From NCBI GenBank assembly GCA_046563655.1, contig CM102285.1:2480001-2544000 (forward strand): 64,000 nt of DNA. Direction: 5' to 3'. The notes under the pieces were generated by a model that was given only the letters and a program-made list of their open reading frames with translations, was not told the origin of the DNA and did no database searches. Position 1 is the first letter of the stretch. Every line of letters begins with the position of its first letter. Shown piece by piece: positions 40,194-64,000 of the stretch. Source of the DNA: Yuukianura sp. NJ FZ-2021 (taxonomy: Eukaryota). A program made the translations under genes and the position numbers.

Positions 40194-41383
40194 CTGGAAA
40201 ATTTTCAGAAACAGTTTTTCTACACTAAACTGCAACAGACTTGCAAACAAAAACGTTTGAAATCAACACTTGCAGACTGAAAGCTTCCGTTTGCTTTCAA
40301 CTGAAAGCAGTTTCACATGAAATTATTTTTTTAAACTCAATCATTTTCAACTGAAAGCAGACACCGAATCTAAACAAAAATTTTTAGCTATGTTGAAGGT
40401 CTAGCTGAAGGAGTGGATATTCTGGTTCTGTTATTGACGCAAAATTCTAGAAATACATTAAGTTAGTTTTCTACTAAAAATAATATTTTGCTCTAGGTAC
40501 TCAAGATTGACTCCGAAATGTTAGGTAAATTAGATTTTCAAAGACGTCAGGAGCAGAGATTAAAATTTATTCACATCATATACATGATATACAATACATT
40601 ATATTTATATAGTGCCATGCAGATCTCCACTCCATGCCTCATTTGTCATTCATTGCTTTCGTGAGTTGAGCTAAGGTTCAACGCGCGCCATTGAACCAAT
40701 CGTGAAAAAATTTGCCGTAGCTACAGAATTTAGCCACATATGCTAAATAATGTTCTCAACACTTTTGGAGAATTAGGTTACAAAATGCAATCAACTAACA
40801 TAACCATAAACCTTTAAAACTAAATCACAATTGTTAAGAAGCTTCGAAAGCGAAAGCTTCGAAAGCGTTAAGAAGCCTTCGGCATCAAAAAATAAAAGTG
40901 AATTCACTGAATGAAACCGTACAGAACCTTTCCAGGCGCGGCGTTAGATTAAGTTACTTGACAATAGTAATTATGATTTATTTGGTTGAATTCGGCTGAA
41001 TATCTGGAAATACGTCGCTACCTACGTTTATTTAGCTTATGTGGCCACAACATGGTAGCTACAAGGCAAGATTTTCTACAGGCAGCTCCAAATGTTGCAA
41101 CACAAAGCATACTAATACATATATGCATAAACATGCTGATTGCAATGGCCACTACAAAGGATCTACACTGTGCGGCTACAATTACGCTCGTTGCGGCTTA
41201 CTTCAACCCAGTCTGGAATTGAAATTCAAGAAAAAAAAATGAAAAACCTGCTGCTCTGTATCATTTGCGTGTGTGATCATTGATCAATGATCACGATCAG
41301 TTATTAAAACGCAGGTTCATATTGTAGTTTCAGTAATTCACGAAAATAAAATTTCATAGCAATTTTTCCAAAACGTGTTTCAA

Positions 41384-42334
41384 ATGAATTTCCTTTGTAT
41401 AACAATTCTTTTTGTGTGGTTACTGGGCGGAAGCAGCATTGCTTCAACTGGCGATAAGTACAGGTTGACCACTGCTGGCAAGTTTCCCTCTGCAAGGTCA
41501 TTTACTGCAGCGATCTACGATGGAGACAATTCCATCTATATCTTGGGCGGAATGCTTAAGGACCGCAGCATTTCAAGAGACATTTTACGGTATGACATTT
41601 CCACGAACAAAGTTGATGTTGCCGGGCAATTTCCAATTGGAGTAGTAGGATCAGCATGCGTCGCGGACGGAAATGGAAATTTTACGGTATTTGTTGCCAG
41701 TGGCGGATCCCTTGGTCCGCCGACTCCCAAATGGCCAATCAACGTCTACAAATTTTCAAATTCAAATTACAATCCTACTTTGGAGCACTCTCTCCATAAT
41801 GCATTCGGCCCAATTTCGGCAGTTACAACTTCAGACAACAAAATTTATTTCACCAGCGGCGGGAAATCTTTGTACCACTACAATGCTACTGATGGAGTTG
41901 AAACTGAAGTTTATACATGCCTCAAGCCAGGACAACACGGACCAGGATGTGGCCTTGACTCTGTCGTTCTTGTCAACAACAACTTAGTCATGGGTGGATA
42001 CGCAACAAATCAACTCGTCGAATTTAACCCAACCACGACCATTTCCCGCGAATTTGAAACCAAACGAACCGATTCTTCAACAATGCTGGCTGAGGGTGAA
42101 GACATTTATTTTGTCGGTGGAAGAAATGGACCACCAACACCATGCAATGGATTTTGCTTCCAGAAGTACTCAACCAGAACTGGAAAGTTGGAAATCCTGG
42201 ATATTCCTGGAGATAGTCGAGCTTATCCGTTCCTTCACGCAAGTGCAGTGTTTGTGCCTAAATTAAACAGAATTTACGTATTCGGTGGAGATCCGTACCA
42301 ATTGGACACAATATTTTACATTCAGCTAGAATGA
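41384..42334 (+). CDS. Secreted kelch-repeat beta-propeller protein, single coding exon, 316 aa
   Basis: Signal peptide MNFLCITILFVWLLGGSSIA; kelch motifs RSFTAA..IYILGG, ILRYD, LVMGG, IYFVGG, IYVFGG. Confidence 0.8.
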   Translation: MNFLCITILFVWLLGGSSIASTGDKYRLTTAGKFPSARSFTAAIYDGDNSIYILGGMLKDRSISRDILRYDISTNKVDVAGQFPIGVVGSACVADGNGNFTVFVASGGSLGPPTPKWPINVYKFSNSNYNPTLEHSLHNAFGPISAVTTSDNKIYFTSGGKSLYHYNATDGVETEVYTCLKPGQHGPGCGLDSVVLVNNNLVMGGYATNQLVEFNPTTTISREFETKRTDSSTMLAEGEDIYFVGGRNGPPTPCNGFCFQKYSTRTGKLEILDIPGDSRAYPFLHASAVFVPKLNRIYVFGGDPYQLDTIFYIQLE

Positions 42335-42899: not shown

Positions 42900-44414
42900 T
42901 TACTTAAAACTGACCAAAAGATTAATGACATTGGAGATAATGATGTCCTTCAAGATGAACAATAGTGTGGATTTATTAACAAATCCGATGTCAGAAATTG
43001 CAAGTTGAACTGACCGGAAACCCTTCAACTTTTTCATTTCGAATTTTGATACCTCGAAATTCCTCCCTGCTACATATACAGGTTCAAAATTTTGAGAGAA
43101 ATTGAAGTTGTCGGCGCCACTATCAAGGAGGAATTTCAAAACTTGGAGACAGTAGACCAAGACCATGACCATTGCTAGTGTTGTGGGGAACCCACACATG
43201 TATGGGCACTTAATAGTGCAAAAAATTACAGTAATGACGATACCGTAGCCAATTGTGAGGAAGGCCATCACCCAATGACAAAACTCGATGTTGAACTCTT
43301 GAGCACTGAGTTGAACCATTTGATAATGACCGAGTCGTTTGAAATGCCCGCAAATGTTCGTTCTGAAATTCAATATAATTTTTACATTTACACTTAAAAT
43401 ATAAGTATTCAATATAAATGCGTTTCTTTTCCTTTAACAAACTCTTTGATCGTAGCGATATTCAAGTAAACTACGTAAGTAAGCAATATGTACGTATGCG
43501 GTATATAAGTAAGCAACATTTTACCCATGAGCGGCAGCATTCAGCAGTATTGAGTTGCGTTTGAAAAAGAAGATGACCAAGACTAGCACATGAGTTGCGT
43601 AAATTATGTCAATGAAAGCGATCCACGTAAATACTGCTGCAAAACATCCAGTTAAGTATATGTGCAAGTCTCCCGCAATCACTATAAAAAGGGCTTTGAA
43701 AGCACCGCCGACGTGAGTTTCCATTTCTATGTGCACAACAAGAATTATCGGAAAACAAGCGAGGGCCAGAAGTATCACAAAAATACATTCCATGATAAAG
43801 TGTTCCATTTTCGCAAAATTAAGGAAATAGACTGTACCTATATAAAAATATCATTTTGGTTATTCATTCAGTGCATTTATTTTTCATTTTTATGCAATTT
43901 TTGCTTTGTATGTAAATACTCAAATGAGCAGAAATAGTTTTTTTTAACATTTTAAATTCCCTGCTGCTATAAATGTGAGGTTTTTGGAATTAAGATTTTT
44001 AATAAGTGGTTACTTACGTAGCTCGCGACTGGTTTGGAGCAATTTGTTGCTACAGCTGGCAATGGCTTTACTTTTCAAGAGGACAACCAAATGAAATATA
44101 ACTACTTCTAGCATAATTAAAAAGAAGACGAATGCTAAGACACGCTCATCAACATTATTCCGTTTTGATCTATTCCCAAAAACTTCATATAGTGGTGCTG
44201 TGAGCGCAAAAAATAAATTGATGCATAGTGAAGTAGTTGCAAAAATGCCAAATTTTCCGGACGATTCCATGGTAACAGATTGGACTATCCCAGTTTTGGG
44301 ATTTGGTTTCCAGGTGAAGTAGTACGGGAGTACTCCAAGTGCCTGTCCTAAGTTGAACAGTTCTAATAACCGCAGAGTACGCGGATGAACTGGATTTCTG
44401 GATTCTGATTTCAT
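42900..44414 (-). CDS. Family B chemoreceptor-like multi-pass membrane protein, intact copy B1 (exons 44414-44018, 43837-43525, 43362-42900)
   Basis: Three phase-compatible exons, about 390 codons; LGVLPY near the N-terminus; C-terminus GFVNKSTLLFILKDIIISNVINLLVSFK. Confidence 0.72.
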
Positions 44415-45728
44415 TTTAATTTGTTTTCGTTTTCTTATTGTTAGTTTAAGTAACAAAATGTATTAGGTCACTTGTTGCCTTCTGTTAGACAAGTTTTTTT
44501 TGCTTTCTGTTTAATTTATTCTAATTAAGAGAAAATTATTCTGAGGAAATATTTCATTGCAGAGATAACTTAAAGGTTAACCACACTCGAGAAAGATCAA
44601 ACGCAACACTAAAACTTTATAAAACTTGATGCATAGGAGTGGAACGTAGCAGCAATTTTTCTTTATGAGAATGTCAGGAAACACATATTTTTTTCAAAAC
44701 CAATTTCAAAGCGAATGCTGTATTATCGCAACATTAAAACAATTGATTCCTATGAGTGAAACACAGGAACAGTTTTTCATTAGCTGATGTCAAAAAGCAC
44801 ATGAATTTTTCAAAACCAATTTCAAATCGAATGTTAATTTTTTTTTAAATTGTATCTACACGGTTTTATTAACATTAATTGGTTTTTACTCTTCCAGATA
44901 GTGAGAATATTTGCTGATGGATGATGCTATTCGTTTTCCTTACCTTGGCGTCCAAAATATAATTTTTCAACACCACTTTTGAAACTGAAGTTATAAGAAA
45001 TGTGTTTAAGTAGTATAGTTTATGTAGAATTCGGATGTTTAACGTCCAACTTCTAAACTATCTGGTTAAAATTTTGAACAACTGGAAAATAGGGTTTTCC
45101 ACTACAACACTCACTTAGTTTTTAAGTAGAAAGAAAATGGCTTTCCTTCTATACTTCGTGTATTAACTAGATGGAATTTATTTGAATAAGATGATTGATA
45201 CAACGGTACTTAACAGTTTTACTATGAAGAAAAGTAATAATTACGATGAAATCGAGAATAAAGTAAACACATAATAAAAATGTGCAGCCAACGTAGAACG
45301 TTTTTCTGTGTAAAGTGTGGAAAAAGATGTTCGAAGTTTGGCTTTATACAAATAGATGAGTTGCGTTAAAGGCATCTGAAACTAAATCAACTACACTTCA
45401 TGGTGAATTTGGATGATATACATGCAACTTAAATTAATGCAAACCTTGTGAATATGTAACAAACCTTGTGAATATGTAACAATACTTACATATGTAAGTA
45501 TCATACCATTTGGTTGTCTACGCTAACGTAAGTTCTAACTTTATTTTTTTTTGAATTTCTTCATTTTATTTCATCTTCTTGTCTCTCTAAGTTCTTCTAG
45601 AGTGTAGATTTGTGAGCGTAGATTACTATTATTTTGCACAACTTTATATTAGTTTATGCTTGATTTTCATTTTAGTAGCTTTCCTTTCTTCAAGGATATC
45701 ACGATTCCACGAGTTAAGCTTAGTTAGT

Positions 45729-47522
45729 TTAAGTACCTATTTGCTTCAACATGAGCGTCAAGGAAATTGTTTGGTCGAGGACAGTTGCATTGACATTAAC
45801 TAGCGTGTGTTTGTCAATATAGTTGAGTGGACTACACCGTATGTAGCATGGCCTCAACGACCTCCACATCATAACTTCCCTTCGAGTGCCTGTTAGTTGC
45901 CTTTGGACTTGAGATATGTAAGTAACCGACTTGCAGTAAATCATCGAACCAAAAGACAAAACTATGTTTACATCACCGAAGATGCTTGAAGCAAGGACAA
46001 AAAGAATAACATTCATAACGTTGAATTCTAGGCCAAACAAGCATGCGTAACATACTACCGATAACAAGCTGCCAATGACCAATAAAGATGCTAAAGGTAA
46101 TGCCCCCATTTCATTAAATGCTACGGAAATTATATAAATTCTGTTGTAGTGTTGTGCTAAGGCGGTAGTTTGACCTTGGTTGGATAATTTTTGAAATAAT
46201 ATAGGGTCGCTTAGCCAGTTGACCACAAACTGTGCCGTTACATATCCTGAAATTAAACACTGGACGAACTTTTGTAATAAGAAGTACCCTTGTACCCACG
46301 TCATTATAACCCCGACAACAGTACAAGTAATTGCCAAGTAGTCCGACAGCATAGCGTAGTAGCTGAGTTCACCAAAATTACTTCCAAGGATGTACTTGAA
46401 CAACTCTGTCAAGTCTCTGCCCAACGCCACCGGAACGCCAATATCAAAGCAAATACGCACTACCTCTCCCACTGTGCAGAAAGTCTGAAGAGTTCGAATA
46501 TTCAGTTTTTCTTCAGAGATGTAGAAAGAAAACTCTGAAAAAAAGTAGTCATTGACATATTTCTAATACATGTGTTACAAATATGGATAATTATTCTCTT
46601 CATCTTTATTCTTTACGGATCCAAAATTATCAACTAAATTATCAAAAATTAATTAAAAAAATTAAAAATTAACAAAAAGTATCCTCGCTGTTCAACGCGG
46701 AAACTCCTGCTCTATCTTGGGAAGCTTACCCTCTGGAAAAGATCTCTACGAGTTATTCATACTGTAATCTAACATTTACCCTACTCCTTTTCTCAAGCTG
46801 CCTGACAGTAAAATTTTATGACTTGAAATAAAGGTTATTAAAAGGACATTCTATATAAAAAAAATTATCAACGAAATTTCTGAAAACAAAATTCACGTGG
46901 CCAACGTTCTCGTGAAACGTTTTATGAGCTTGAGTTTTATGGCTATGTGTAGTTAGGCTATGAGTTTTATGAGCCCAAGTATTGAAAATACAGTTAGCTT
47001 TGTTTAGGCAACATGAACAATATAAAAAGCAGTTCATCTCATTAGATGCTTACGCATTGTGGAACGTATTCTAATCTTTTGGAAACTTTTCTTGCTGTAT
47101 ATACCTAACCTAGTAATAAAGTATGTAAAAATATAACCTTTGTCGGATGTCAGTACGGACATCATAAAGTTTAGATGCTGCTGCAAGACTTTCTTGTGCC
47201 AAGTAATGATGATATCAACCGTAACGCTCAGGCAAATCACAAAAGTTGCTCCCATAAATACAATTGTGAGTACAGGATTAAGGTTTGCAGCGTAGTTAGT
47301 GTATGCCATTGCGATCAAACCAAATAGAGAAATACAGTCCATGAGAAGTATGGCAGTAGATCCTCTTCTGTATTCCACTGAGTCGTCTAACTCAAATTTG
47401 TTTTCGTGAATATTCCATCGCAGAGGATTTTGGTATGTTTGATTTGCGTTCATAATACTGCGTTTCACCATGTCCACGGCATGTCCTCGACGACGTGGTT
47501 TAGCGCGCCGAAGTTTTTCCAT
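45729..47522 (-). CDS. Family A chemoreceptor-like gene A1 (exons 47522-47138, 46534-45729)
   Basis: Open exons, phase-1 intron; TYQNPLRW and WRSLRPCYIRC..DQTISLTLML. Confidence 0.75.
46635..46860 (+). mobile_element. Extremely 5'-truncated CRE-type non-LTR copy in the A1 intron
   Basis: 46678-46767 translates SILAVQRGNSCSILGSLPSGKDLYELFIL*, homologous to the end of the 4359 ORF (SIAIQRGNAASIFGTITPGKELDEIYYL*). AATAAA and A-tail present; TSD AAAATTATCAAC at 46623-46634 and 46861-46872; absent from the A2 and A3 introns. Confidence 0.85.
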
Positions 47523-48307
47523 CGTGAAATTACCGTCAAATTTCAGATTCAAATACAACGTTCGAAGGATTTTGTGAACAGGATAAGTTTCTAATAGACT
47601 CAGAAGGTTCTATGGAATGTCGCTTCTGTTTTATATGTAAAAAATAATTTTCATGAAATGAAATGCATGTTTTTTAATAGGATGTTTGCAGGGACACAGG
47701 ACTGATGGTAGATAACATAGACATAAATCGATTGAGCTTCGGTGAAGCGGTATTTGTGTAGCTGCAAAACCTATGAACTTCAGCAATGATTCTGTATGTA
47801 GGTACTAAAACTAAATAACTCAAGTTGATACACGTGCCAGATATGAGCAGACGCCATTAGGACTTTTAGTTAATTCATAGTTTTTGAAAATAGTTCTTTG
47901 TGTAAAAATGGAGATGAAAGCGAATGTAATTTTACTGATTATTAATTCAGTATCCTTGTTCGACAATTTTTTTTCTAAATTGACTTTTTGGGAAACTAAA
48001 ATTTAATATTTGCTTGGTTTGAATTGAGGCCTTGAAGTCATAACGTCCTGCATTAATTTAAATTACCATCGTTGAAGATTGCCGCATCCAGCCAAGGACT
48101 GAATTTTCCAGTACTGTAAGAAATTATCAGCCTACTTAAAACTAACCAAAAGATTGATGATGCTGGAGATGATAATGTCCTTCAAGAGAAACAAAAGTGT
48201 CGATTCGTTAACAAATCCCACGTCAGAAATTGCAACTTGAACGACTGAAACTTTTTAGTTTCTTTTGTTCAAATTTTGATATCTCGAAATTTCTTCCTGC
48301 TACACAT

Positions 48308-48456
48308 GTATGTATGTATGTTTTTCAGAGGGATCTCTAAGTGCATTAGGCACAGAGAGGATCTCGGCGATGAGGCGCACTGTCGGGCCTATTTCGCTCT
48401 CTCCATAACACCAATTTAATTTCAGGGATTAACTCTCCCGCCGCTAACCTTCGCTC
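48308..48456 (-). mobile_element. Short retroposed insertion (SINE or LINE 3' end) with a (CATA)n tail
   Basis: 18-bp TSD TTTCTT(C/T)CTGCTACACAT at 48290-48307 and 48457-48474; GTATGTATGTATG tail; empty site in B3 at about 53750. Confidence 0.8.
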
Positions 48457-48554
48457 TTTCTTTCTGCTACACATACTGGTCCATAATTTCGGGAGAAGTT
48501 AAAGTTCTCGGCGCCGCTATCTAGGATGAATTTCAAAATTTGGAGACAGTAGGC

Positions 48555-48833
48555 CAGTGTTCCCAGTTTCAGTCAATGGACATTCTGGTCGTCCGCCCGA
48601 AAACGTCTTTTGGACATTTCGGTCCAAACCCTTTCAGTCGACCGAAATGACAAAAACTAATTTTAACCCTACAGGAGGCGCGGGAAATTTGAAAATTTGG
48701 GAGGCGTGGCCAGGTTTGGCACACGGCGCATGTGCATACCGTGTATGCATTTTGGTCGGACATTTCGGTCATTTTAGTCGTTTCAGACATTTCAGACCAA
48801 AATTTGAAAAAGTGACCGAAACTGGGAACACTG
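48555..48833. mobile_element. hAT-type MITE, 279 bp
   Basis: TIR CAGTGTTCCCAGTTTC (16 bp perfect, 21 bp with 1 mismatch); 8-bp TSD CAGTAGGC at 48547-48554 and 48834-48841; empty site in B3. Confidence 0.92.
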
Positions 48834-50272
48834 CAGTAGGCCAACACCATGAGCAATGCGAGTGTAGTCGGGAAACCGCACATGTATGGGCACTTAATAG
48901 TGCAAAAATTACAGTAATGATGATACCGTAGCCAATTGTCAGGAAGGCCGTAAGCCAGTGACAAAGCTCGACTTTGAACTTTTGAGCACTCAGTTGAACA
49001 ATTTGATGATAAGAGTCGTTTGAAATGCCCGCAAACCTTTATTCTGAAATTGGATAATTTTTTAGTTTGAGATGAAATAATTCCGATAGTAACCCGGAAA
49101 ATACGAAAGTAGCGAACATGTAAGCAGCTGGCAACGGGGACACAACATGGTGAACTTTTACACACTATGGCTATATGGACGGTAGAATAAAAAAGTGACC
49201 TTTGACCCGGAAGGAGGTCACTGGGGGTCATGTAATGAATTTAAATGTTGTTTGTCTCAATGAGACGAACATATTTGTGGACGTTATTTCCCGAGTTGTC
49301 GTTTTTGAAACAGTAACCGGATTTACTGACTGTAAAAGTACAACTAAGCTAACTAAATTCTATTACCCATGAGCAACGGTATCTAACAGAATTGGGTTGC
49401 GTTTGAGAAAGAAGACGACCAAGTCTAACACATGAGTTGTGTAAATTATACCAATGAAAGACGTCAATGTAGCCACTGATGCAAAACATCCAGTTAAGTA
49501 TATGTGGAAGTCTCTCGCAATCACTATGAAAATGGCTTTGTAACCACTGCCGACTTGAGTTTCCAATTCTAGGTGCACAGCAGTGATTATCGGAATACAA
49601 GCGAGGGCCGAGAGTATCACAATCACAAATTGCATGACAAAGTGTTCCATTTTTGCAAAATTGAGGAAATAGACTGCGCCTATAAAATTATCATTTTGAT
49701 TTGGAGCAATTTGTTGCTACAACTGGTAATGGCTTTGCTTTTGAAGTGGACGACCATGTGAAATACAACAATTTCTACCATAATTATATAATTTCTACCA
49801 TAGGAACATTTTTTCATTACGTGATGCCGAAAAGCACATGAATTTTTCAAAACCAATTTCAAAGCAAATGTTAATTTTATTTTAAATTGTATCTACATGC
49901 TTTTTATTAACATTATAACATTATAGTAGGTTTTTGCTCTTCCAACATAATAGGAATATTTGCTGATGTATCATGCTACTTGTTTTCCTTAGCTCGGCGT
50001 CAAAAATGTATTTTTCAATACCACTTTTGAAAATGAAGTTGTAAGAAATGTTTTTGCATGATTTGTGTAAAATTCGGAGGGTTTACGTCGAACTTGTAAA
50101 TTATTGGTTAGTATTTCCAACAACTGGAAAATGGGTTTTTCCACTCCAATTTGGACTTATTTGAATTTGAACAATAGTATTTAAGTTGAAAGAAAAAGGC
50201 GTTCTTCCTATATCCTGTGTATTAACTAGTAAAGAGAATTTATTTGAATAAGATGATTGATACAACGATAAT

Positions 50273-50933
50273 TAGGGTTGTTCAAGTTCCGGTGCCAGAA
50301 ACGGCACGAAACTTATTTCCGGTGTCGTTTCGTTTCCATTTCCACATTTTTTGAAACGAACTTTCGGTTCCGTTTCCGTTTCGTTCCCAGTTCCATGGTA
50401 AGATGGAACCGTTTCCTTTAGGAAACGGAACTGGAACTGGATGAATTTATTTTAGCGCAAAATTTGAAGCGCGAATCTCAAACTAGAAAAAAGAACAATA
50501 ACGTAATGTTATTATATATAATGTTATTATTATTAAGCAACACTTTTTTTTTTAGATAAGATTGCATATGTTTGAAGTGAACAAATCGATTATTTGGCGA
50601 TTTCTTTCTTAATTTGAAGTCAAGTGTAATAGATAATCTAATCAGTCTCCGTCGACATCATCATCTATCGACAATATGTAATTTAGTGATTCTAGCCCGA
50701 ATATCGTTGAAATTGACTTTAAAAATCATTTTTAAAGATAATTCGGCTGCCAAAGGTAGCCGCAAGAAAAGAAATTCGTTTCCAGTTCCGTTTCGTTTCG
50801 TTCCAGCGCCGTTTCGTTTCGTTTCCGTTTCCCCGTTTTTAAATTAGTTCCGTTCCATTTTCGAAAACTCATCGTCAGTTCCGGTGCCGTTTCCGTTTCC
50901 TCGTGGAAACGGAACGGAACTTGAACAACCCTA
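50273..50933. mobile_element. Non-autonomous hAT element, 661 bp
   Basis: Perfect 19-bp TIR TAGGGTTGTTCAAGTTCCG; 8-bp TSD ACGATAAT at 50265-50272 and 50934-50941; many subterminal AAACGG/CCGTTT-type repeats; empty site at about 55964. Confidence 0.92.
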
Positions 50934-51456
50934 ACGATAATTACTTGTTTTAATAGAAAAAAAAAGGTAATAATTAGAATGAAATCGAGCATAAAATTAA
51001 CACATAATAAAAATGTGCAACCAACGTAGAACATTTCTGTATGCAAAGTATGGAACACAATTGTCAAAATTTGGCCGTTATACAAATAAATGAGTAGCTT
51101 AGAATGTGTTTGAATCTACAGTCTCTCTGCTAAATCGACTAAACTTCAATGTGAATTTGAAGGATATAAATGCAATTTACGTTAATATGAACCTTGTGAA
51201 TAAGTAACGTGTAAGTACCATACCATTTGGTTGTCTAGCCTATGCCTAACAGATGTTTTAACTTCATTTATTTTTTTTTTTTTGGATTTATTCATTTTAT
51301 TTCATCTTACTGACGCTTTATTTCCTGCAGAGTGTAGATTTGTGAGTCGCGCTTGCTATTATTGTGCACAACTTTATATTAGTTTATGTTTGATTTTCAT
51401 TTTAATGGCTTTCCTTCCCATTCTAGAGCATCACGATTTCATGAGTTAAGCTTAGT

Positions 51457-53002
51457 TTAACTACCCACTTGATTCAACATCAGCGTCAGGGAAATTGTGT
51501 AGTCAAGGACAGTTGCATTGACATTAACTTGTGTCTGTTTGTCAATATAGTTGAGTGGACCACACCGTATGTAGCATGGCTTCAACGACCTCCACATCAT
51601 CACTTCCCTTCGAGTGCCTGTTAGTTGCCTTTGGACTTGAGATATGTAAGTAACCGACTTGCAGTAAATCATCGAACCAAAAGACAAAACTATGTTTACA
51701 TCACCGAAGATGCATGAAGCAAGAAAAAAAAGAATAACATAGATAATGGTGAATCCCAGACCGAACAAGCATGCGTAACATACTACCGGTAACAAGCTGC
51801 CAATGACCAGCAAAGATGCTATAGGTAATGCCCCCAACTCATTAAGTGCTACCGAAATTATATACATTCTTTTGTAGTGTTGTGCTAAGGCGGTAGTTTG
51901 GCTTTGGCTGGATAAGTTTTGAAATAATATAGGCTCGCTTAGCCAGTTGATCAAAAACTGTGCTGTTACATATGTGACAATTAAACACTGGATGTACTTT
52001 TGTAGCATCAAGTACCCATGTACCCAAGTCATTATAACCCCTACAACAGTACAAGTAATTGCCAAGTAGTCCGATAGCATAGCGGAGTAACTGAATTCAC
52101 CAAGTATACTTCCTAGTATGTATTTGAACAACTCTGTGAAGTCTCTGCCCAACGCCACCGGAACGCCTATATCAAAGCAAATAGGCAATAGCTCTCCCAA
52201 TGTACAGAAAGTCTGCAAAGTTCTGATATTCAGGCTTTCTTCAGAGATGTATAAAGAAGATTCTGAAAAAAAGTTGTAATCATTAGTATTCCTAATACAT
52301 ATGTTACAAATATACATAATTTTTCTTTTCTTTCGTATTCTTTACGGAACAGAAATTATCAATGACATTTCTGAAAACAGAATGCATGCGGCCAAAGTTC
52401 TCGTGTATTGAAGTCTTATGTGCGCCACTTAAGCTTTGTTTAGGCAACGTATCAACAATATAACAAGCAGTTCACCGCCTCAGATGCTTACATTGTCGAA
52501 CGTATTCCAATCTTTTGGAAGCTCCTTCTCTATCATGCTGTATGTAAATATTTATACAAATAATAAAATATGTAAAAATTTAACCTTTGTTGGAGGTCAG
52601 TACGGACATCATAAAGTTTAGATGCTGCTGCAAGACTTTCTTATGCCAAGTAGTGGTGATATCAACCACAATGTTGTGGCATATCAGAAGACTTGATCCC
52701 ATAAATGCAATTGTGAGTACTGGATTAAGGTTTGCAGCATAGTTAGTGTATGCCATTGCAATCAAGCCAAATAGTGAAAGACAGTCCAGCAAAAGTATAC
52801 CAGTGGATCTTCTTCTGTATTCCACTGAGTCATCCAAGTCAAATTTGTTTTCGTCAATATTCCAACGCAGAGGGTTTTGGTATGTTTGATTTGCGTTCAT
52901 AATACAGCGTTTCACCATGTCCACGGCATGTCCTCTACGACTTGGTTTTACGCGCCGAGCTTTTTCAATTGCAAAATTACTTTGAAAATTGAAGTACTTC
53001 AT
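51457..53002 (-). CDS. Family A chemoreceptor-like gene A2 (exons about 53002-52585, 52262-51457)
   Basis: Open exons; close paralog of A1 and A3. The ATG used by A1 is ATT here, so the start is uncertain. Confidence 0.72.
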
Positions 53003-53591
53003 TGTTCAAAAGGATTTTGTGAACAGAATAAGTTTTTGATATACTCAGAGCTTATATGCAATGTCGCTTTCTGTTTTATATGTAAGAAATAATTTTCATA
53101 AAAGGAAAGCTATTTTTTGAATTTAAAGTAGCATTTTTACAGGGACGTTAGGCTGATGGTAGATAACACGGATATAAATCGATTGAGCTTGGGTGGAGCA
53201 GTACTTGTGTAGTTGCAAAATCCATCAACATCAGCACTATTTCTGAAGGTACTAAAACTTTCATAACTTCTTAAGTTCATACAAGCGCCAGATGAGCAGA
53301 CTCCATTAGGACTCTTTTAGTTAATTCATAGTTATTGAAAATAGCTCTTATTTTGTAAAGACGGAAATGAAACTGAATGTAATCTAACTGATTATTAGTT
53401 CAGTATCCTCGTTGGACAAAATATTCCTTAAATCGGAAATTGTCTTTTTGGGAAATTAGAATTTGATATTTGCTGGGTTAGCACTGAGGCCTTGAAGTCA
53501 TAACATTCTGCATTAGTTTAAATTACCGTCGTTGAAGATTGCCGCATCCGGCAAAGGACTGAATTTTTCAGTACTGTAAGAAATTATCAGC

Positions 53592-55245
53592 CTACTTAAA
53601 ACTAACCAAAAGATTGATGATGCTGGAGATGATAATGTCCTTCAAGAGGAACAAAAGTGTCGATTCGTTAACAAATCCCACGTCAGAAATTGCAACTTGC
53701 ACGGACTTAAAGCTTTTCAGTTTCGTTTGTTCAAATTTCGATATCTCGAAATTCCTTCCTGTTACATATACTCGTCCATAATTTCGGGAGAAGTTGAAGT
53801 TCTCGTCGCCGCTATCTATGATGAATTTCAAAATTTTGAGACAGTAGGCCAACACCAAGAGCAATGCGAGTGTAGTCGGGACCCCGTGCATGTATGGGCA
53901 CTTAATAGGGCAAAAAATTACAGTATGATGATCCCGTAGCCAATTGTAAGGAAGGCCGTAAGCCAGTGACAAAGCTCGACTTTGAACTTTTGAGCACTGA
54001 GTTGAACAATTTCATAATGAATAAGTCGTTTGAAATGCCCGCAAACGTCTTTTCTGAAATTAAATATAATTTCTTAGTTTGAGCTAAAATAAATCCGATA
54101 TTAACTTGGAGTGTACGAAAGTAGCGAAGGTATAAGCAGCTCGTAACGAGGACACAACAAGGTGAACTTTAACGCACTATGGTTATCGACGGTAGAATAA
54201 AAAACTGACCTTTGACCCGAAGGAGGCCACTCGGGGTCATGTAATGAATTTAAATGTTGTTGGTCCCAATAACACGAACATTTTTGTGGGCGTTATTTCC
54301 CGTGTTTTCGGTTTTGAAGCAGTAAGTAAACCAACGCATTTACTGACTGTAAAAGTACAACTACATTGCATTACCCATGAGCAGCAGCATCTAACAGAAG
54401 CGGGTTGAGTTTGAGAAAGAAGACGACCAAGACTAGCACATGAGTTGTGAAAATTATATCAATGAAAGACGTCAATGTAGCCACTGCTGCAAAACATCCA
54501 GTTAAGTATTAGGTGCAAGACTCTCGCAATCACTATGAAAAGGGCTGTGTATCCACCGCCGACGTGAGTTTCTAATTCTACGTGTACAACAGTAATTACC
54601 GGAACACAAGCGAGGGCCAAGAGTATCACAATCACAAATTGCCTGACAAAGTGTTCCATTTTCGCAAAATTGAGGAAGTAGACTGCGCCTATAAAATTAT
54701 CATTTTGATTTGATTTGGAGCAATTTGTTGCTACAACTGGTAATGGCTTTGCTTTTGAAGTGGACGACCATGTGAAATACAAAAATGTCTGCCATAATTA
54801 TATAATTTCTACCATAGAAACATTTTTTCATTACCTGATGTCGAAAAGCGCATGAATTTTTCATGCGACTGGTGTGGAGCAACTTGTTGCAAATGCTGGC
54901 AATGGCTTTGCTTTTGAAGACGACGACCATGTAAAATACAACAATTTCTACCGTAATTATAAAGAAGACAAACGCTAAGACACGCTCATCAACAGTCCGT
55001 TTGGATACATTCCCATAAACGCCATATAGTGGCACTGAGAGCGCAAAAAATATATTGACGCAAAGTGGCGTGGTTGCAAAAATGCCAAATTCTCCGGATG
55101 ATTCTATGATAACAGATTGGACTACTCCAGTTTTACGAGTTGGTTTCCAAGTGAAGTAGTACGGGAGTACTCCAAGTGACTGTCCTAAGTTGAACAGTTC
55201 TAATAACAGTAGAGTATGCGGATAGACTGGATTTTCTGATTTCAT
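53592..55245 (-). pseudogene. Family B copy B3, pseudogene
   Basis: Frameshifts near 53925 and 54510; a duplicated end of exon 1 fused to spacer DNA at about 54700-54865. Confidence 0.8.
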
Positions 55246-56518
55246 TTTATTTTGTTTTTGTTTTCTTATTCTTTGTTTAACAAATAAAATGTATTAGGTC
55301 GCGTATTGCGTTGTGTTAGGAATTTTTTTTATGCTTTTTGATTAATTTATTCTAAGGAAGAGAAAAATATTCTAAGGAAATATTTTATTGTGGTGAATTT
55401 TTGGTGAGTTAACTTATAAGGCTAAACACACTCGAGAAAGATCAAACGCAACATTAAAACTATATAAAACTTGATGCATAGGAGCGGAACATAGCAACAA
55501 TTTTTGTTTATGAGGATGTCAGGAAACGCATATTTTTTTTCAAAACCAATTTCAAAGCGAATGTTAATTTTTTAAAAATTGTATCTACATGCTTTTATTA
55601 TCATTATAACATTATAGTAGGTTTTTTACTCTTCCAACATAGTAAGAATACTTGCTGATTGATGATGCTACTCGTTTTCCTTATCTCGGCGTCAAAAAAT
55701 GGAATTTTTAATACCACTTTTGAAAATGAAGTTATAAGAAACCTTTTTGCACAGTTTGTGTAGAATTCGTAGGGTTTGCGTCCAACTAAACTATTGGTTA
55801 ATATTTTCAGCAACTGGAAAATGGTTAGGTTAGGTTACCTGGAAAATGGGTTTTTCCACTCCAATATTCACTTTAGTTTTTAAGTAGAAAGGAAAAGGCG
55901 TTCCTCCTATATCCCGTGTATTAATTAGTAAATGGAATTTATTTTAATACGATGATTAATACAACGATAATAACTAGGTTTAACATAAAAAAGTAATAAT
56001 TAAAAGCCTGCCAGAAACAGGAGAGTAAATGAAAATGAAAATGAAAATGAAATTAGAATGAAATCGAAAATAAAATAAACTCATAATAAAAACGTGCAAC
56101 CACCGTAGAACAGTTTTGTATGTAAAGTATGGAAAACGATTGTCCAAGTTATACAAATAGATGAGTAGCTTAGAAGGTATTTGAATCTACAGTCCATCTG
56201 CTAAATCCACTAAACCTCAATGTGAATTTGAATGATATACATGCAACATACGTTAATATAAACATTGTGAACATGTAACAAGTAACTACCATACCATTTG
56301 GTTGTCTAGCCTAACGAAAGTTTTAACTTTATTTATCTTTTTTTTGAATTTCTTCATTTTATTTCATCTTATTGGCGCTCTAGTTCCTGCAGGGTGTAGA
56401 TTTGTGAGTCTAACCAACTATTATTGTGCACAACTTTATATTAGTTTATGCTTGATTGTCATTTTAATGGCTTTTCTTCCCCTTCAAGAACATCACGAGT
56501 TCATGAGTGAATCTTAGT

Positions 56519-58061
56519 TTAACTACCCACTTGCTTCAACATCAGCGTCAGGGAAATTGTGTAGTCAAGGACAGTTGCATTGACATTACTTTGTGTCTGT
56601 TTGTCAATATAGTTGAGTGGACCACACCGTATGTAGCATGGCTTCAACGACCTCCACATCATCACTTCCCTTCGAGTGCCTGTTAGTTGCCTTTGGACTT
56701 GGGATATATAAGTAACCGACTTGGAGCAAATCATCGACGCAAAAGACAAAAATATGTTTACATCTGCGAAGAGGCATGAAGCAAGGACAAAAAGAATAAC
56801 ATTGACAACAGTGAATCCTAGGCCGAACAGGCATGCGTAACATACTACCTGTAACAAGCTGCCAATGATCAGCAAACATGTAATAGGCACTGTCCCCACT
56901 TCATTAAATGCTATCGAAATTAAATAAATTCTTTTGTATTGTTGTGCTAAGGCGGTACTTTGGTTTTGGTTGGATAAGTTTTGAAATAATATAGGCTCGC
57001 TTAACCAATGGATCAGAGACTGTGCCGTTACATATCCTACAATTACATACTGGACGCACTTTTGCAGTGATAAGTACCCTTGTACCCAAGTCATTATAAC
57101 TGCTACACCAGTACAAGTAATTGCCAAGTAGTCCGACAGCATAGCGTAGTAACTGTATTCACCAAGAATACTTCCAAGTATGTGCTTGAACAACTCTGTC
57201 ATGTCTCTTCCCAACGCCACCGGAACGCCAATATCAATGCAAATACGCACGACCTCTCCCAATATGCAGCAAATCTGTAGAGTTCGCATATTCAGTTTTT
57301 CTTCAGAGATGTAGAAAGAAGACTCTGAAAACGAAGTTGTATAGTGATTAACATTTCAAATACATGGTTACAAATATGCATAGCTTTTTTCATTGCTATT
57401 CTTTCCGCAACAACAATTATCAACTAAATTTCTGAAAACAGAATGCGTGGCCAAAGTTCTCGTGAAATGAAGTGTGATGTGCGCCCAAGTATTGAAAATG
57501 CAGTTATCAAATTTCTAGCTTTGTTTAGGAAACGTAAGTTCATCGACGTAGATGCTTACGCGTACTTGAACGTATTCCAATCTTTTGGAAGCTCATTTCT
57601 CTTGCTGTACATACCTAGGTAATAAAATATGTAAAAATATAACCTTTGTTTGAGGTCAGCACGGACATCATAAAGTTTACATTCTGCTGCAAGGCTTTCT
57701 TGTGCCAAGTAGTGCTGATATCAACCGCAATGTTTCCGCACATCTGTAGAGTTGCTCCCATAAATACAATTGTGAGTACTGGATTAAGGTTTGCAGCGTA
57801 GTTAGTGTATGCCATTGCGATCAAACCAAATAGAGAAAGACAGTCCAGGAGAAGTATAGCAGTAGATCTTCTTCTGTATTCCACTGAGTCATCCAAGTCA
57901 AATTTGTTGTCGTGAATATTCCATCGCAGAGGGTTTTGGTATGTTTGATTTGCGTTCATAATACTGCGTTTCACCATGTCCACGGCACGTCCTCTTCGTC
58001 TTGGTTTAGCGCGCCGAGGATTTTCCATTGTGAAATTACTGTGAAAATTGAAGTGCTTCAT
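56519..58061 (-). CDS. Family A chemoreceptor-like gene A3 (exons about 58061-57644, 57324-56519)
   Basis: Open exons, phase-1 intron, paralog of A1 and A2. Confidence 0.75.
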
Positions 58062-58487
58062 CGTTCAAAAGGAGTTTGTGAACAGCATAAGTTTCTCATA
58101 GACTGAGAGCTTCTATGCAATGTCGCTGTCTACTTTATAGGTAAAAAATAATTTTCATAAAAGGAAATGGATTTTTTTAAATAGGATGTTTGCTGGGACA
58201 CCGGACCGATGGTAGATAACACAAGGCATAAATCAATTGAGCCTCGGTGAAGCGGTATTTGTGTTGCTGCAAAATCCATCAACTTCGGCAATATTTCTGT
58301 CTGTAGGTAGCCAAAATTTTCATAACTCCTTAAGTTCCTACAAGTGCCAGATATGAGCAGACTCCATTAGGAGTCTTAGTTAATTCATAGTTTTTGAAAA
58401 TAGCTCTTTAAGTAAAAACGGAGATGAAAGTTGATGTAAATTCACTGATTATTTATTCAAAAAACTCGGTCATTATCATATGGCTCA

Positions 58488-59521
58488 TATGATAATGACC
58501 GAGTTTTTTGAAATGCCCGCAAATGTTCATTCTGAAATTCAATATGATCTTTAGATTTGAATTAATATATAAGTACTCAATATGTATGCTTTTTCTGTTT
58601 ATGTTTAGCAAACTCATTGGTTTATAGTGATATAAGTAAATTTTACCCATGAGCGGCGACATTCAGCAGCATTGAGTTGCATTTGAAAAAGAAGATCACC
58701 AACACTAGCACATGAGTAGCGTAAATTATGTCAACAAAAGCGATCCATGTAGCCACTGCTGCAAAACATCCAGTTAAGTAAATGTGCCGGTCTCCCGCGA
58801 TCACTTCGAAAAGGGCTTTGAAAGCTCCGCCGACGTGTGTTTCCAATTCTATGTGCACAACAGCAATTATCGGAATACAAGTGAAGGCCAGAAGTATCAC
58901 AAAAATACATTCCATGACAAAGTGTTCCATTTTCGCAAAGTTTAGGAGATATATTGTACCTACGTATAAATATTAAATACTTTGGGACTGTTTAAAGGTC
59001 ATATTTTTTGCAATGCTTTAGTGTGTAAATACTCTAATTGGCAGAAATTGTTTCCTTTTAACCTTTTAAAAATCCATTGTTACTCTACATGTAAGGCTTT
59101 TGGAATTAGGATTTTTAAGTGGTTACTTACGTAGCTCGCGACTGGTTTGGAGCAATTTGTTGCTACAGCTGGCAATGGCTGTACTTTTCAAGAGGACGAC
59201 CAAGTGACATACAACTACTTCTACCATAATTAAAAAGAAGACAAATCCCAGGACACGTTCATCCACATTATTCCGTTTGGATCCATTCCAAAAAACTTCA
59301 TATAGTGGTACAGTTAGCGCAAAAAATAAATTGACGCAAAGTGACGTGGTTGCAAAAATGCCAAATTTTCCTGACGATTCCATGGTAACGGATTGGACTA
59401 TCCCAGTTATCGAATGTGGTTTCCAAGTGAAGTAGTACGGGAGTACTCCAAGTGCTTCTCCTAAGTTGAACAGTTCTAATAACCGTAGAGTACGCGGATG
59501 AACTGGATTTTGTGATTTCAT
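58488..59521 (-). pseudogene. Family B copy B4, 3'-truncated
   Basis: Exons 1 and 2 are open, but homology to the last exon stops after ...GHFKKLGHYH at about 58488. Confidence 0.78.
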
Positions 59522-60662
59522 TTTATTTTGTGTTTGTTTTTTTAATTACTGTTAATTTAGGTAACCAAATGTATTAGTTCATGTATTGCCTTCTGTTGGA
59601 CAATTTTCTTCCTTTAAATTATTTGTTGAAGGAAGAGAAAATTATTATAAAGAGATGAAATATTTTATTGTGGTGAATTTCTGCTTAGATAACTTAAAAG
59701 TTATAAGATTCGGAAAACAGCTAAAGCAAAACTGAAACACGTTATATGTATACGAGTAGAACGTAGCAACATTTTTTATGAATACGTCAGGGAAATGCAT
59801 GCACAGAAAGTCTTTTTTCAAAACCAACTTCAAAGTGAATGCTAAATGCGCTTTTTAAAGATCTATTTTTAAAGAGCTCTATGCTTTTAAATACAAGAGT
59901 TTTTCCCAGTGTAGTATAGATACTATTCCGTTTTCTTAGTTTGACATCAAAAATGCATTTTTGAACACGACTTTTCAAGATGAAGATATAAGTAATGGGT
60001 TTTCATAGTTTATTTAGAATTCGGATTGACTTCCAATGTTAAAACTATTTTTGAAAAGTTTTCCAAAAAAAAAATGAAAAAAAAAGTAGTTTTCTTACTC
60101 CAATTTCTGGCTTTTATTTCCAACTACTAGAAAGGAAAACGCACTCCATTTATATCCCACGTACTAACAAAATGAAATTTATTTGAATACAGTGATTGGA
60201 CAAATGTAAATTATTGCAGTTTTACCATGCAGAAAAGTATTACAATGAAATAGAAAATAAAATAAGCATCTACAAGAAACTAGAACACTGTTGGGGTATG
60301 GTCGAGATATGATCAACGTATGGTAAAAGTTTGTCAAAGTTTTGAGGTTGTTCAAATAGATGAGTTGCGTAAATGGTATGGAAGGACACTGTGATAGTAA
60401 ATCACGTCTACAAAAATTGAGGCCAAAAAATATGTGTTTCCACAACTGGCGCATATCCGAAAAATGACAACTAATTGAGGCCAGGTACAAGTAGCAGTCG
60501 GAGGAGAGAAGTTGTAGAAAAAATATTTAAGAGTTTACAGAAGTGGGTTTCCAATTCAACGTGACAAAGAAGGCTGCTGGAAAGCAAGCCCATACCCAAC
60601 CAAATTGTTTCAAAAAATTTTAAACATTGTTAAAAAAGTAGGCCAAATTTTTCAAATCAATT

Positions 60663-63600
60663 TCAATGAATTAATTCATTCGTTACATTCAATAATTTTG
60701 AACAATACCCTGACACAATCTCTGTTTCTCGATTGTTGTCCACTTTAGCTTTGTTGTCAAATTCAAACGAAATATGTCTCATAACTGATCCTCTTCTTTT
60801 CTGGGCTTGACGGTTTGCCATTTTCAACGAATTTAAAAATACCGAAGCGCTGATTCCCGCTGAATCAGGCTGAAACTGAGATTTGAATTCTCGTTCCCAG
60901 CATTCCAAGTCAACAAGTTCGCAATGCATCGGTTCAAAAAATTCCAACAATCCAATTTGCGATTCTATAATATGGAAGCACTGCTTCTTCTCTAGAGCAG
61001 GATTCTGCAACAAACCTTCCGATTCGTCCACTACCATTTTGGCTGCAAAATCCAAACCGACGTAAGGCAGCGTGTATGAAATATTTGGAAATTGTCCAAG
61101 GCGGTTACATGTAGTTAGAAATCCACCAAGAGCGTCTGTTGCATTTACGACGTTCAGCTCCGAGTGACTTCCTATTTCAGCAAGACGGTAGATGGCGCCT
61201 GGAACGCCTTTTCGAATTGCCAACCTAACCAGCTTCTCAGAAACCCATTTGCTTTGGGCATAGCCATTGCTCATGCTCAGTGCATCAAAATTCTCAAATG
61301 CATAATCTTCGTCTGCGTGAAAAGTTTCATCGACGCCTGGGAGCTGCACTCCGTCAAAAACTACAACACTGGACATATGATGAATCCACTTCAGCTTTCC
61401 TTTAACTGCAAATTCAATTACTTCTTTTGTCATGCGCACTGTAGAATTTTTTAGTTGCGCATAGGACTTCAAGTGGTTCACGTCTGCTGCGGTATGGTAG
61501 ATGGCATCAGTTGTTTCACATAAAGAATCATAGGTTTCATCTCCAAGTCCAAATTTTGACATACTGACGTCTCCCGCCAAAATTTCGAGCCGTGATTTCG
61601 GAAATTTTTGAAATTGAGTCGTCAATTTATGGGTCGCAATGGCAGCATCCAATTTTATTTCTGCTTCTTTTATACTTTTTGCTCTTATTATGCAAACTAC
61701 TGTTTGAGAAGTACTTGCAAGTAGTTGATACAAAAGTGCCGTACCGAAGTATCCAGTACTTCCAGTCAGCAGTGATTTCTGGATGGATTGAAGGCTGTTA
61801 ATGTTCAATTGTAGTTCAACAGTCAAATCCAATTGCACTTCTTTCTGGAAATCAATTTTTTGTTTTTCTGAATTTTCCGTCAAAAATTTAACAAATTCTG
61901 AGAGCACCGGGAAATCAAAGATGTTTGAAAGTTCCAAAGAGGGAAATTCTTCTAGTAGACTGTGAGTCAACAGAGATGCATGGATAGAGTTTCCACCAAT
62001 GGTAAAGAAGTCGGACTCTTCTCGAATGAATTCTTCCGGAATTCCAATAACGGATGCCCAGCACTGTCTTACTTTGTTGACCAAAATGCTGGTGTTTGAC
62101 GCTTCAGTTTTTAGGAATCTAGCGGCGGTTGCGTTACGATCGATTTTTCCAGAAGCAGTTTTATAAAATTCGGAAACAAAGTGAATTTCAGCGGGAATCG
62201 CGTGATGTTGAAGACGTTCGGAGAGAAAAGCATTTAAATTTTTCAGCGTCGGTGTATTTTCCAGATTTTCAACGAGACATACTGCAATCAACTGTTGCAC
62301 ATTTTGAATTTTCCGTAAGACGACAATAGCGTGTTTAATTCCCGGGAATTTTTGAAGTACAGCCTCGACTTCTCCAAGTTCGAGTCGCATTCCATGAATT
62401 TTAACTTGTGAATCTTTTCGTCCAATAACTGTTACCTCACCGTTGTTCCAAAAACCAACATCGCCTGTTTTGTACATTTTGGATCCTGGCTGAAATGGGT
62501 TTGGCAACATCGGCTGTGCAATGTCTTTTCCAACGTATCCAGTCATGAGCCCCGCGCCGGAGACATAAATGTCTCCAGTCACCCCAATCGGAACAGGTTG
62601 GCAATGGTTGTCCAAGATGTAAACAGAGACATTTGAAATTGGCGGCCCGACAGAAGGAAATTCGTAATTTTGGCCGCCTTTGTATATTTTTGTACAAATT
62701 GCAAATGTTTCGGTGCTCCCGTATTCGTAAACGCAGCCAAAGTTTTTCTCTAACAAGTTCAAATTTTCCATTCTTTCTCCACCAAAATGGATCCACTTCA
62801 GTTTTGAAAGTAATTGAGCATCATCTTTCCCTGCAACAAGATCGCCTGAAAAATTTCAGAGATCTGGAATTTCATTTTTTTCAAAAACACTTTAATATTT
62901 CAAAAATTTGAAAAAAAAATTAAAAATAATTGCTTACGGGTAACTATGTTCGAGGCAAAGAAACTCGTGATTTCATGCTGGTAAATAAAAATTTTCAATT
63001 TTTGCAAATCGAGTCGCGTTGCTTCAGAAGGAATGTGCAAACTTCCTCCAACGAGAAATGTTACCCAAATATCACACAAAGCTGGAAGGAAGCCTGGAGG
63101 CACAATGAACATTGCGCGTAAAGTGGAGTCAACCTGCATATATTTGGCGGTAAAAAGCGTACGGTTCAAAATTGAATCTGATGTGAGAAGTACGGCTTTC
63201 GGTACTCCAGTTGACCCAGATGTAAAAAAACAGTACGGCGTATCGTTTCGGCAAGGATTTCCAACCGCAGTGACATCTTTTGCAGGCAAAGTGTTGTTCC
63301 AACCATCTTCAAACATTGCCGCTTCATTGATAAAAAAGGTGGAGTGATATTTTAAATCAATTTTTTGAATTCTATCGGACGTTGTGATAAGTGTAGGTTC
63401 TCCGAGTTTTGCCAGACATGCTTCAACTTGCGCCTTTGCATAAGTGCTGTGCAGCACCGCCACGGTTTTATTCAACATCAGAACGGCCAAACTGGCTATC
63501 ACGAATGGAGCTCCTTGAGGTAGATAAATAGCTACAAACTTGTTTTGTTCAATGTTTTGAATCTTGGCGGCATCCGAATTTCCAGTGGTGTTTAAATGCG

Positions 63601-64000
63601 TTTCTAGTTCTAATTTCAGTTTGACAACGCATGCGTAAAGGTCATTGTAAGAAAGCCGGACGTCATCTTCTTCAAGCTCTTGTACCAAAGCCAACTTCTG
63701 TCCATTTTCGACAACATTATTGAGGAATATGTCAAATAAATTTGCTGGCGCATCTTCAAGTGATATCTTCAAGTCGTTTGAATTGTAAGTTTGTACGACT
63801 AGTTTTTGCTCCCGTGCAGTGAGCATGGGCAGTTTGTCAATTTGTTCTTCTGGAAAACGGAGTCCGGTTTCTAATATTGTGATAACATGCCCGGGTAGGT
63901 TGGACACAAGCGTTGAATTGAGCTTTGTTTCACTAAAATTCACGACAAAACGTATATCCGTTTCAGTGGAAGTGATGCGCAGCACAATTGAAAATTTTTC
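60663..64000 (-). CDS. NRPS-type enzyme, 3' part: end of a probable condensation domain, adenylation, thiolation (PCP), terminal thioester reductase; continues beyond the window
   Basis: A motifs LSYNDL, FFTSGSTGVPKAV, GGE, YGSTE, GDIYVSGAGLMTGY, YKTGD, GRKDSQVKIHGMRLELGEVE, SGKIDR. PCP DFFTIGGNSI. R domain LLTGSTGYFG, HTAADVN, GYAQSKWVSE. Phase-1 GT-AG intron 62846-62937 joins NIVT|RDLV...HFGGERMEN. Confidence 0.92.

Follow-up and report, generated by a model that had tools for sequence, protein, structure and literature searches.

Gene structure and domain content

We analyzed a 64,000-nucleotide stretch of DNA from Yuukianura sp. NJ FZ-2021 (contig CM102285.1, positions 2,480,001 to 2,544,000; hereafter the window), in which the minus strand at the far edge carries a gene of the nonribosomal peptide synthetase (NRPS) type. 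The gene lies in two minus-strand open reading frames (ORFs), one of 730 aa at 60663..62855 and one of 366 aa at 62900..64000 that, as originally predicted, is open to the last letter of the window. Joining the two exons by script across a 92-bp GT-AG intron gave 3246 nt in frame with the sole TGA at the end, encoding 1081 aa with adenylation (A), carrier (T) and reductase (R) domains in that order in one spliced frame (Table 1). We consider it likely, though well short of certain, that this is an intact, host-integrated invertebrate gene for a single-module NRPS-like reductase, consisting of a condensation (C) domain remnant followed by A, T and R domains, which would act on a non-standard substrate and derive from an old bacterial transfer.

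Table 1. Features of the NRPS-like gene, with positions counted from the first letter of the window
Feature	Position	Strand	Basis or remark
Exon, 5′ end past window edge	62938..64000	-	encodes condensation-domain tail, linker and N-terminal A domain up to just before splice site
Predicted spliceosomal intron, 92 bp	62846..62937	-	GTAAGC...TTTTCAG, phase 1, 18% G+C
Last exon	60666..62845	-	remainder of A domain, then T and R domains with a ~120-aa C-terminal tail
Stop codon TGA	60663-60665	-	end of joined frame
Putative condensation-domain C-terminal remnant and C-A linker, first ~75 residues in window	63776..64000	-	hhalign; alignment to P0122 and P0123
Adenylation domain, intron-interrupted	62133..63556	-	Pfam, motifs
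A3 motif FTSGSTG	63197-63226	-	
A4 pocket stretch FLPALCDIW, Leu at usual Asp235 place	63065-63091	-	
A5 motif YGSTE	62709-62723	-	
A7 motif YKTGD	62460-62474	-	
A8 motif GRKDSQVKIHG	62391-62423	-	
A10 motif SGKIDR	62136-62153	-	
Carrier (PP-binding) domain	61869..62063	-	Pfam PP-binding, 38.3 bits
GGNS with phosphopantetheine serine	61986-61997	-	
Thioester reductase domain, short-chain dehydrogenase/reductase (SDR) type	61023..61757	-	Pfam NAD_binding_4
Nucleotide-binding motif TGSTGYFG	61743-61766	-	
Catalytic motif YAQSK	61248-61262	-	

The donor GT (62937-62936) and acceptor AG (62847-62846) divide a codon, with one base on the donor side and two on the acceptor side, and G+C content is 41% in the exons against 18% in the intron. 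Left unspliced, the exon-1 frame stops at 62900. The two close relatives that we identified, P0122 and P0123, are single uninterrupted ORFs whose alignment with the window protein runs through the splice junction with a length difference of one residue, which supports the intron model; set against these relatives, the 92 bases thus form an insertion. Adjacent receptor-like genes contain comparable short introns (~85 bp ending in TTTGTAG and ~300 bp ending in TTTTCAG), and the acceptors of these neighbors are likewise of the (T)nCAG or TAG type. We conclude that the two-exon structure with the clean intron of the original prediction is confirmed, at the level of the sequence, far beyond chance. 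G+C content at third codon positions (GC3) is 0.375 for the gene, and ten neighboring ORFs range from 0.32 to 0.49. DNA 3′ of the stop codon is AT-rich and non-coding; a poly(A) signal of the AATAAA form was not found in the ~360 bases 3′ of the stop, an absence from which we conclude nothing.

The adenylation motifs, the carrier serine in GGNS and the SDR motifs (GxxGxxG and YxxSK) that had been claimed for the locus were all located, and Pfam agreed with them. Matches to AMP-binding fell on both exons (90.2 and 62.2 bits, cutoff 29.9) at consecutive profile positions, 42-262 (exon residues 149-349) and then 282-383, followed by AMP-binding_C (38 bits, cutoff 24.5), and with motifs A3, A5, A7, A8 and A10 present this identifies an NRPS-type adenylation domain of the ANL superfamily. 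A PP-binding match (cutoff 20.8) with a conserved GGxS serine identifies the carrier domain, and a strong NAD_binding_4 match (174.5 bits, E 3e-51, cutoff 20.1) with TGxxGxxG and YxxxK identifies an SDR-type R domain. The AMP-binding, PP-binding and NAD_binding_4 matches follow one another in the A-T-R order first proposed. The closest solved structures were NRPS modules such as LgrA for the A-T part (233.8 bits) and MxaA for the R part (4u7w, 118.7 bits).

Aligning the window protein to P0122 and P0123 showed that the invariant positions include A5 YGSTET, A7 GD, A8 GRxDxQVKxxGxRLxLGEVE and A10 SGK, with the A10 lysine retained, as well as GGNS (alignment G283 G284 N285 S286), TGxTGYxG and YxQSK. 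Because these catalytic motifs are invariant among three proteins at 42-49% identity, they point to functional constraint, and the predicted enzyme is probably functional.

Relatives of the gene

Only P0122 (1203 aa, 48% identity) and P0123 (1269 aa, 42%) were close relatives, both from a protein search of the 'near' length class that gave 423 matches at E ≤ 0.001 among 8000 scored candidates. The next best in this class was P0124, an NRPS family protein of Bacillus cereus (1267 aa), with 30% identity over 87% of exon 2. The corresponding 'longer' search gave 1337 matches at E ≤ 0.001 among 7990 scored candidates; the best 120 of these 1337 were bacterial or metagenomic NRPSs no more than 37% identical, and those of the best 120 that also spanned the reductase part were at 26-32% identity. 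The closest bacterial relatives stand at ~30-36% identity. A HMMER search of exon 2 against 1.84 billion representatives returned 142,980 matches at E ≤ 0.001, of which the best 150 were all multi-module synthetases of 4668-7864 aa, ranked by summed modules and uninformative on close kin; neither P0122 nor P0123 was among these 150.

When 185,579 prokaryotic species genomes, one for each species, were scanned with two family-specific peptide patterns, none of the 112 pattern matches was confirmed. A metagenome scan with the family patterns gave 273 pattern matches and three confirmed loci, namely the contigs of P0122 and P0123 and one locus only 24% identical. The P0122 and P0123 contigs (L001 and L002) come from one metagenome, measure 8.4 and 13.7 kb at 40% G+C, and are poor in ORFs, with 2 and 5 others of at least 100 aa, some within the gene, a pattern that is eukaryote-like. 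Their flanks had no informative Pfam matches and no tblastx similarity to window positions 1-60600. Because both relatives lack an intron at the position of the intron in the window gene and are only ~43% identical to each other, we infer that the family is old and its intron content variable.

In a tree of R domains with 59 rows (the window protein and 58 of the 60 R-bearing proteins, two having been dropped for short alignments), the window protein, P0122 and P0123 formed one clade with 99% SH-aLRT support. This clade branches off on a long stem amid terminal reductases from bacteria and metagenomes, none of them a supported sister. Judged by its sequence, the gene belongs to a family that is small and undescribed. 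The literature searched gave no account of this combination of layout and pocket, though the supplementary tables of PMC10531068 may already list a relative.

The N-terminal piece and the number of modules

The first ~75 residues in the window and residues 145-227 of P0122 matched only columns 397-477 of 480 in a condensation template profile built from 33 bacterial C domains (hhalign, probability 96.8%, E 2.6e-10). The window protein had no match to Pfam Condensation, P0123 had a weak one (profile positions 386-454 of 456, 14.9 bits against a cutoff of 30.6, E 0.011), and HHxxxDG was not found in P0122 or P0123. A full C domain, with ~450 residues, HHxxxDG and a Pfam score above cutoff, was therefore not seen, the 5′ end of the window's own copy lying beyond the edge. 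The resemblance to a condensation tail that had been claimed for the N terminus is real, but the piece is vestigial, covering the last ~80 template columns only in a family whose other members lack HHxxxDG.

The window protein aligns to P0122 from about residue 148, which leaves ~150-190 residues missing past the edge. P0122 and P0123 are both complete, with an initial Met right after an in-frame stop, and the 3.8-4.7 kb upstream of their starts gave no significant tblastn match to any of five bacterial C-A N-termini. Because these full-length relatives start ~150-190 residues past the position of the edge and lack the catalytic condensation motif, the product of the gene is most likely ~1200-1270 aa long, with one module and a non-catalytic C remnant, and not the end of a giant synthetase. 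The bacterial proteins P0124, P0129 and P0130, of the same length class, carry a truncated C domain that matches template columns 207-479 of 480 (hhalign probability 99.9%), and on this alignment the truncated-C layout is already present in bacteria.

The substrate pocket and a proposed reaction

HMMER alignment to LgrA placed a Leu opposite the Asp of the FD motif, which we take to be position 235 in GrsA numbering. Asp235 binds the alpha-amino group of amino-acid substrates. An alignment of the A4-A5 stretch from 28 A domains that adjoin a reductase, comprising the window and the 27 of the 60 R-bearing proteins that passed a position filter, had Asp in 25 of the 28; the exceptions were the window protein (Leu), P0122 (Leu) and P0123 (Val), and all 25 comparators had Asp. 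Because all three family members have lost Asp235, binding of the substrate probably does not depend on an alpha-amino group, and an ordinary alpha-amino acid is improbable as the substrate. Candidates may include an aryl, keto, fatty or otherwise modified acid.

In the proposed reaction the A domain would adenylate a carboxylic acid, and the acid would be tethered by a thioester bond to the phosphopantetheine arm that the carrier domain bears on its GGNS serine. The R domain, in which Tyr and Lys are kept, would then release the acid as an aldehyde by NAD(P)H-dependent hydride transfer, and a second hydride transfer could give the alcohol. A mollusc construct, CvTR, reduces twice, to the alcohol, as reported in PMC11869996.

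Genomic context and assembly integrity

The contig also holds an RVT_1 retroelement, a Kelch protein and an exon matching Abhydro_lipase (E 5e-17), together with separate exons whose weak matches, all below cutoff (E 0.0027, 0.042 and 1.6e-4), run co-linearly through CUT_N (the N-terminal domain of cuticlin) and then through ZP-C part by part. These genes bear out the eukaryotic, animal-like neighborhood of the original prediction, and by its sequence the contig is probably that of an arthropod. The arthropod-like receptor cluster proposed at the same time was recovered in part: receptor-like arrays are present, and the arthropod label leans on a sub-threshold 7tm_7 match in one receptor-like family (best 22.1 bits, cutoff 26.6) and on a lead from a protein-language-model Atlas, in which a receptor-like exon lies closest to unnamed clusters, most of them from arthropods (0.97, with a recognition value below the guide line). 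That exon is from the other receptor-like family, for which a protein search found no match among 2271 candidates. Scans of the window found no Rfam matches and no tRNA genes.

The receptor-like arrays occupy 16625-20783, 31064-39533 and 42900-59545 on the minus strand, as tandem copies of at least two families of multi-pass membrane proteins built from a ~140-aa and a ~280-aa exon or similar. Two adjoining minus-strand frames at 27372-29859 (583 and 237 aa) match no Pfam family and have a GC3 of 0.47-0.49, above that of the receptor-like genes. A multi-exon acid-lipase gene (Abhydro_lipase) lies at 24640-26384 (+), a single-exon Kelch-repeat protein with a hydrophobic N terminus at 41360-42334 (+), and a 746-aa ORF with an RVT_1 match (E 1e-19) and a Cys/His-rich C-terminal part, a non-LTR-type retroelement copy (LTR, long terminal repeat), at 4359-6599 (-). 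The ZP/cuticlin-like exons at ~7778-15816 (+) are followed by an 837-aa repetitive frame rich in Pro, Gln, Thr and Tyr, with recurring 'CYPGQPDPRCP' units, and this gene would encode a cuticle-type ZP protein with an unusual low-complexity tail. Direct repeats at 8852-9126 and 12122-12402 (at least ~275 bp, 94-99% identical, 3.27 kb apart) enclose a 457-aa gag-like ORF with a CCHC zinc knuckle at 9894-11267 (-), and the whole of 8852-12402 looks like a non-autonomous LTR element within an intron of the ZP/cuticlin-like gene.

We compared the gene region with five rows of DNA contigs from two studies. A 527-letter contig from a different organism and study covers 60503-61026 across the stop codon at ~91% identity, differing in 45 letters and 3 gaps. 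This contig is the one independent line of support for the gene being more than an artefact of one assembly. Half-depth variant letters were observed at 61620-61647.

Origin of the gene and alternative explanations

The sequences suggest, as the most likely course, that a bacterial NRPS-type gene entered a eukaryotic lineage by an old horizontal transfer. After the transfer, the gene would have adopted the base composition of its host and gained a spliceosomal intron in this lineage. A bacterial-type sequence and layout, the lack of a close prokaryotic relative and three deeply diverged, eukaryote-like members fit an old transfer, as do the host-like composition and an intron that is present here and absent from two relatives. 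Of what is expected of a horizontally acquired animal gene, we found a host-type intron, host-type composition and animal genes on the same contig; nesting within a donor clade was not seen in the R-domain tree. The horizontal acquisition proposed originally, an old transfer from bacteria, is plausible, because the nearest non-family relatives are bacterial at ~30% identity.

Several observations weigh against this interpretation as a whole. The trees and searches contained no named animal, fungal or protist NRPS-like reductases, and the sister group of the family is unsupported. The rest of the pocket varies from one family member to another, and no substrate can be named from it. The 5′ end of the gene is outside the window, so that upstream modules or exons are possible for this copy. 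Against the TIGR01746 model the window protein scored 197.4 bits, below the cutoff of 213.35 (P0123 scored 224.9), and a strict amino-acid adenylation domain (TIGR01733, cutoff 317.4, with Asp235 in place) was not recovered, since the two window exons, scored separately, reached 143.7 and 90.4 bits; the relatives also fell below this cutoff (P0122 235.6, P0123 230.0). As for the assembly, none of the listed contigs (308-911 letters) bridges the gene to the nearest receptor-like exon, a linkage given by the assembly itself, and the contigs cease matching at 60427, 236 bp past the stop, in four of four runs, and at 62926, within the intron, in run X1. These two loose ends and the variant letters may represent a second allele or diverged extra gene copies.

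Among the alternatives to an old bacterial transfer, an old NRPS-like reductase inherited vertically within eukaryotes, with no horizontal acquisition, is unlikely but deserves serious attention. With just 42-49% identity among them, the three members point to an old family on eukaryote-like contigs, no bacterial relative is nearer than ~30-36%, and the prokaryotic scan confirmed none of its 112 pattern matches; moreover, PMC10531068 argues that a scattered distribution in animals could reflect early origin and loss. However, the next-best matches are all bacterial or metagenomic NRPSs and no close animal, fungal or protist protein occurs among the matches listed (weak evidence, as the searches were word-limited), and the truncated-C layout is common to bacterial proteins. 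It is improbable that we see the terminal C-A-T-R module of a larger, multi-module NRPS whose upstream modules lie past the window edge. In its favor, the frame is open at 64000, its initial ~75 residues resemble the close of a condensation domain, and many of the bacterial matches that finish in an R domain comprise several modules. Against it, P0122 (1203 aa) and P0123 (1269 aa) are full ORFs whose first Met follows directly on an in-frame stop; neither contains HHxxxDG or has anything significant upstream by tblastn, and bacterial proteins with the same truncated layout are known.

A silent relic or pseudogene from which no enzyme is made is, in our view, slightly more improbable still: the 60 kb sequenced to one side of the gene showed no tailoring genes, but 1081 codons run without an internal stop in 37.5% G+C DNA, and every catalytic motif is kept and is invariant across relatives at 42-49% identity. 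We give very little credence to bacterial contamination or a chimeric assembly join. The best non-family matches are bacterial, and no listed independent contig bridges to the neighboring genes; set against this are a canonical, AT-rich GT-AG intron that restores the frame, a GC3 like that of the neighbors, an AT-rich non-coding flank 3′ of the stop into which the ~91%-identical contig of a second organism crosses, and the pattern scan, which placed a close relative in no prokaryotic genome. Least credible of all is an ordinary ortholog of Lys2 (alpha-aminoadipate reductase) or of carboxylic acid reductase (CAR). The A-T-R order is shared, and the Lys2 model TIGR03443 is the second-best NCBIfam model, yet it scores 208 bits with window exon 2, 264.9 with P0122 and 238.4 with P0123 against a cutoff of 1030.1, which rules out the ordinary Lys2 ortholog that had been named as the outcome to be excluded. 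CAR (NF041592, cutoff 1300) is ruled out likewise, at 121.9-138.7 bits in the R region only (profile ~761-977), and in a PDB search NRPS A domains came well above CAR (LgrA 233.8 versus CAR 98.3 bits).

Building on an old bacterial transfer, a fuller scenario can be drawn, although we regard it as speculative and doubtful as a whole: a transfer into soil or freshwater invertebrates would have founded a small eukaryotic clade, amino-acid recognition would have been lost, and a non-amino acid would be reduced to an aldehyde or alcohol used as a defensive compound or semiochemical, with an intron gained and a chemoreceptor-like array adjoining.

Known animal NRPSs and significance

The original prediction held that NRPSs are rare in animals, a view that is out of date: when 1059 animal genomes were surveyed, 199 NRPS clusters remained once contamination had been checked for (PMC10531068), and a monomodular NRPS of a mollusc with a terminal R domain has been characterized (PMC11869996). 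Among the animals with cases in that survey are springtails, spider mites, nematodes, rotifers, molluscs and echinoderms. A centipede NRPS has been ascribed to transfer in the common ancestor of centipedes (PMC9151784), and bdelloid NRPS and polyketide synthase (PKS) genes have been reported as responsive to fungal infection (PMC11258130).

NRPS genes in animals are therefore already documented, the current picture of their distribution is unchanged by this gene, and it is the family itself that is undescribed. Animal NRPS-type enzymes are widespread and few have a known product; the gene adds an intact, intron-bearing example from a probable arthropod, and its family has just two further detectable members and a changed substrate pocket. 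Provided that it is expressed, the gene would offer a tractable single-module target of ~1250 residues and a route to a new animal-made aldehyde or alcohol, and the intron gain could help to date a bacterium-to-animal transfer.

Comparison with known systems

Among other A-T enzymes, Ebony and AASDH/ACSF4-U26 are also encoded by animals. These proteins end in an amine-selecting domain or in PQQ-type repeats, not in an SDR reductase, whereas the gene described here ends in the NAD_binding_4 domain and is not Ebony. Lys2 and the fungal NRPS-like adenylate-forming reductases carry a non-catalytic N-terminal extension before A-T-R. They are alike in this A-T-R core, and the TIGR03443 score argues against orthology. 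CAR (EC 1.2.1.30) offers a working analogy, in which an acid would be adenylated, tethered and reduced to an aldehyde; NF041592 (130.7 bits) and the CAR structure 5msc (98.3 bits) match the T-R part only, and the A domain here is of the NRPS type, not the FadD9 type. Glycine betaine reductase has an A-T-R-R layout with two tandem reductase domains. This type was ruled out, as there is one NAD_binding_4 match (residues 363-607 of 726) followed by a ~120-residue tail without a second SDR match.

MxcG of the myxochelin pathway also reduces a thioester with NAD(P)H. Its NCBIfam model was the best at 266.9-317.8 bits, well under the equivalog cutoff of 2300, and MxcG was rejected on that score. The MxcG model has 1442 positions and matches of the relatives start at 377-386; the gene here retains the tail of the C domain only. 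The AusA equivalog (cutoff 2500) was also rejected, with no more than 250.1 bits. MxaA of the myxalamid pathway, the best solved R domain, is alike in the same NAD(P)H-dependent reduction.

The mollusc FmtATR of the bur-ox (bursatellin/oxazinin) pathway is likewise encoded by an animal, interrupted by introns and bacteria-like, a monomodular NRPS with a thioester reductase at its end (PMC11869996). FmtATR differs, by that description, in its N-terminal formyltransferase, its tyrosine-type A domain and its clustered tailoring genes. Pfam found no formyltransferase family in P0122 or P0123 (the N terminus of the window's own copy lies past the edge), and the 60 kb of the window beside the gene showed no tailoring genes. 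The gene would probably not be of the mollusc FmtATR type. Bacterial single-module proteins such as P0124 have the length class and the truncated C-A-T-R order in common with the gene, their N-terminal piece being the C domain after HHxxxDG; they differ in being only ~30% identical, in keeping Asp235, in having no intron and in placing their R domains in the other main branch of the R-domain tree.

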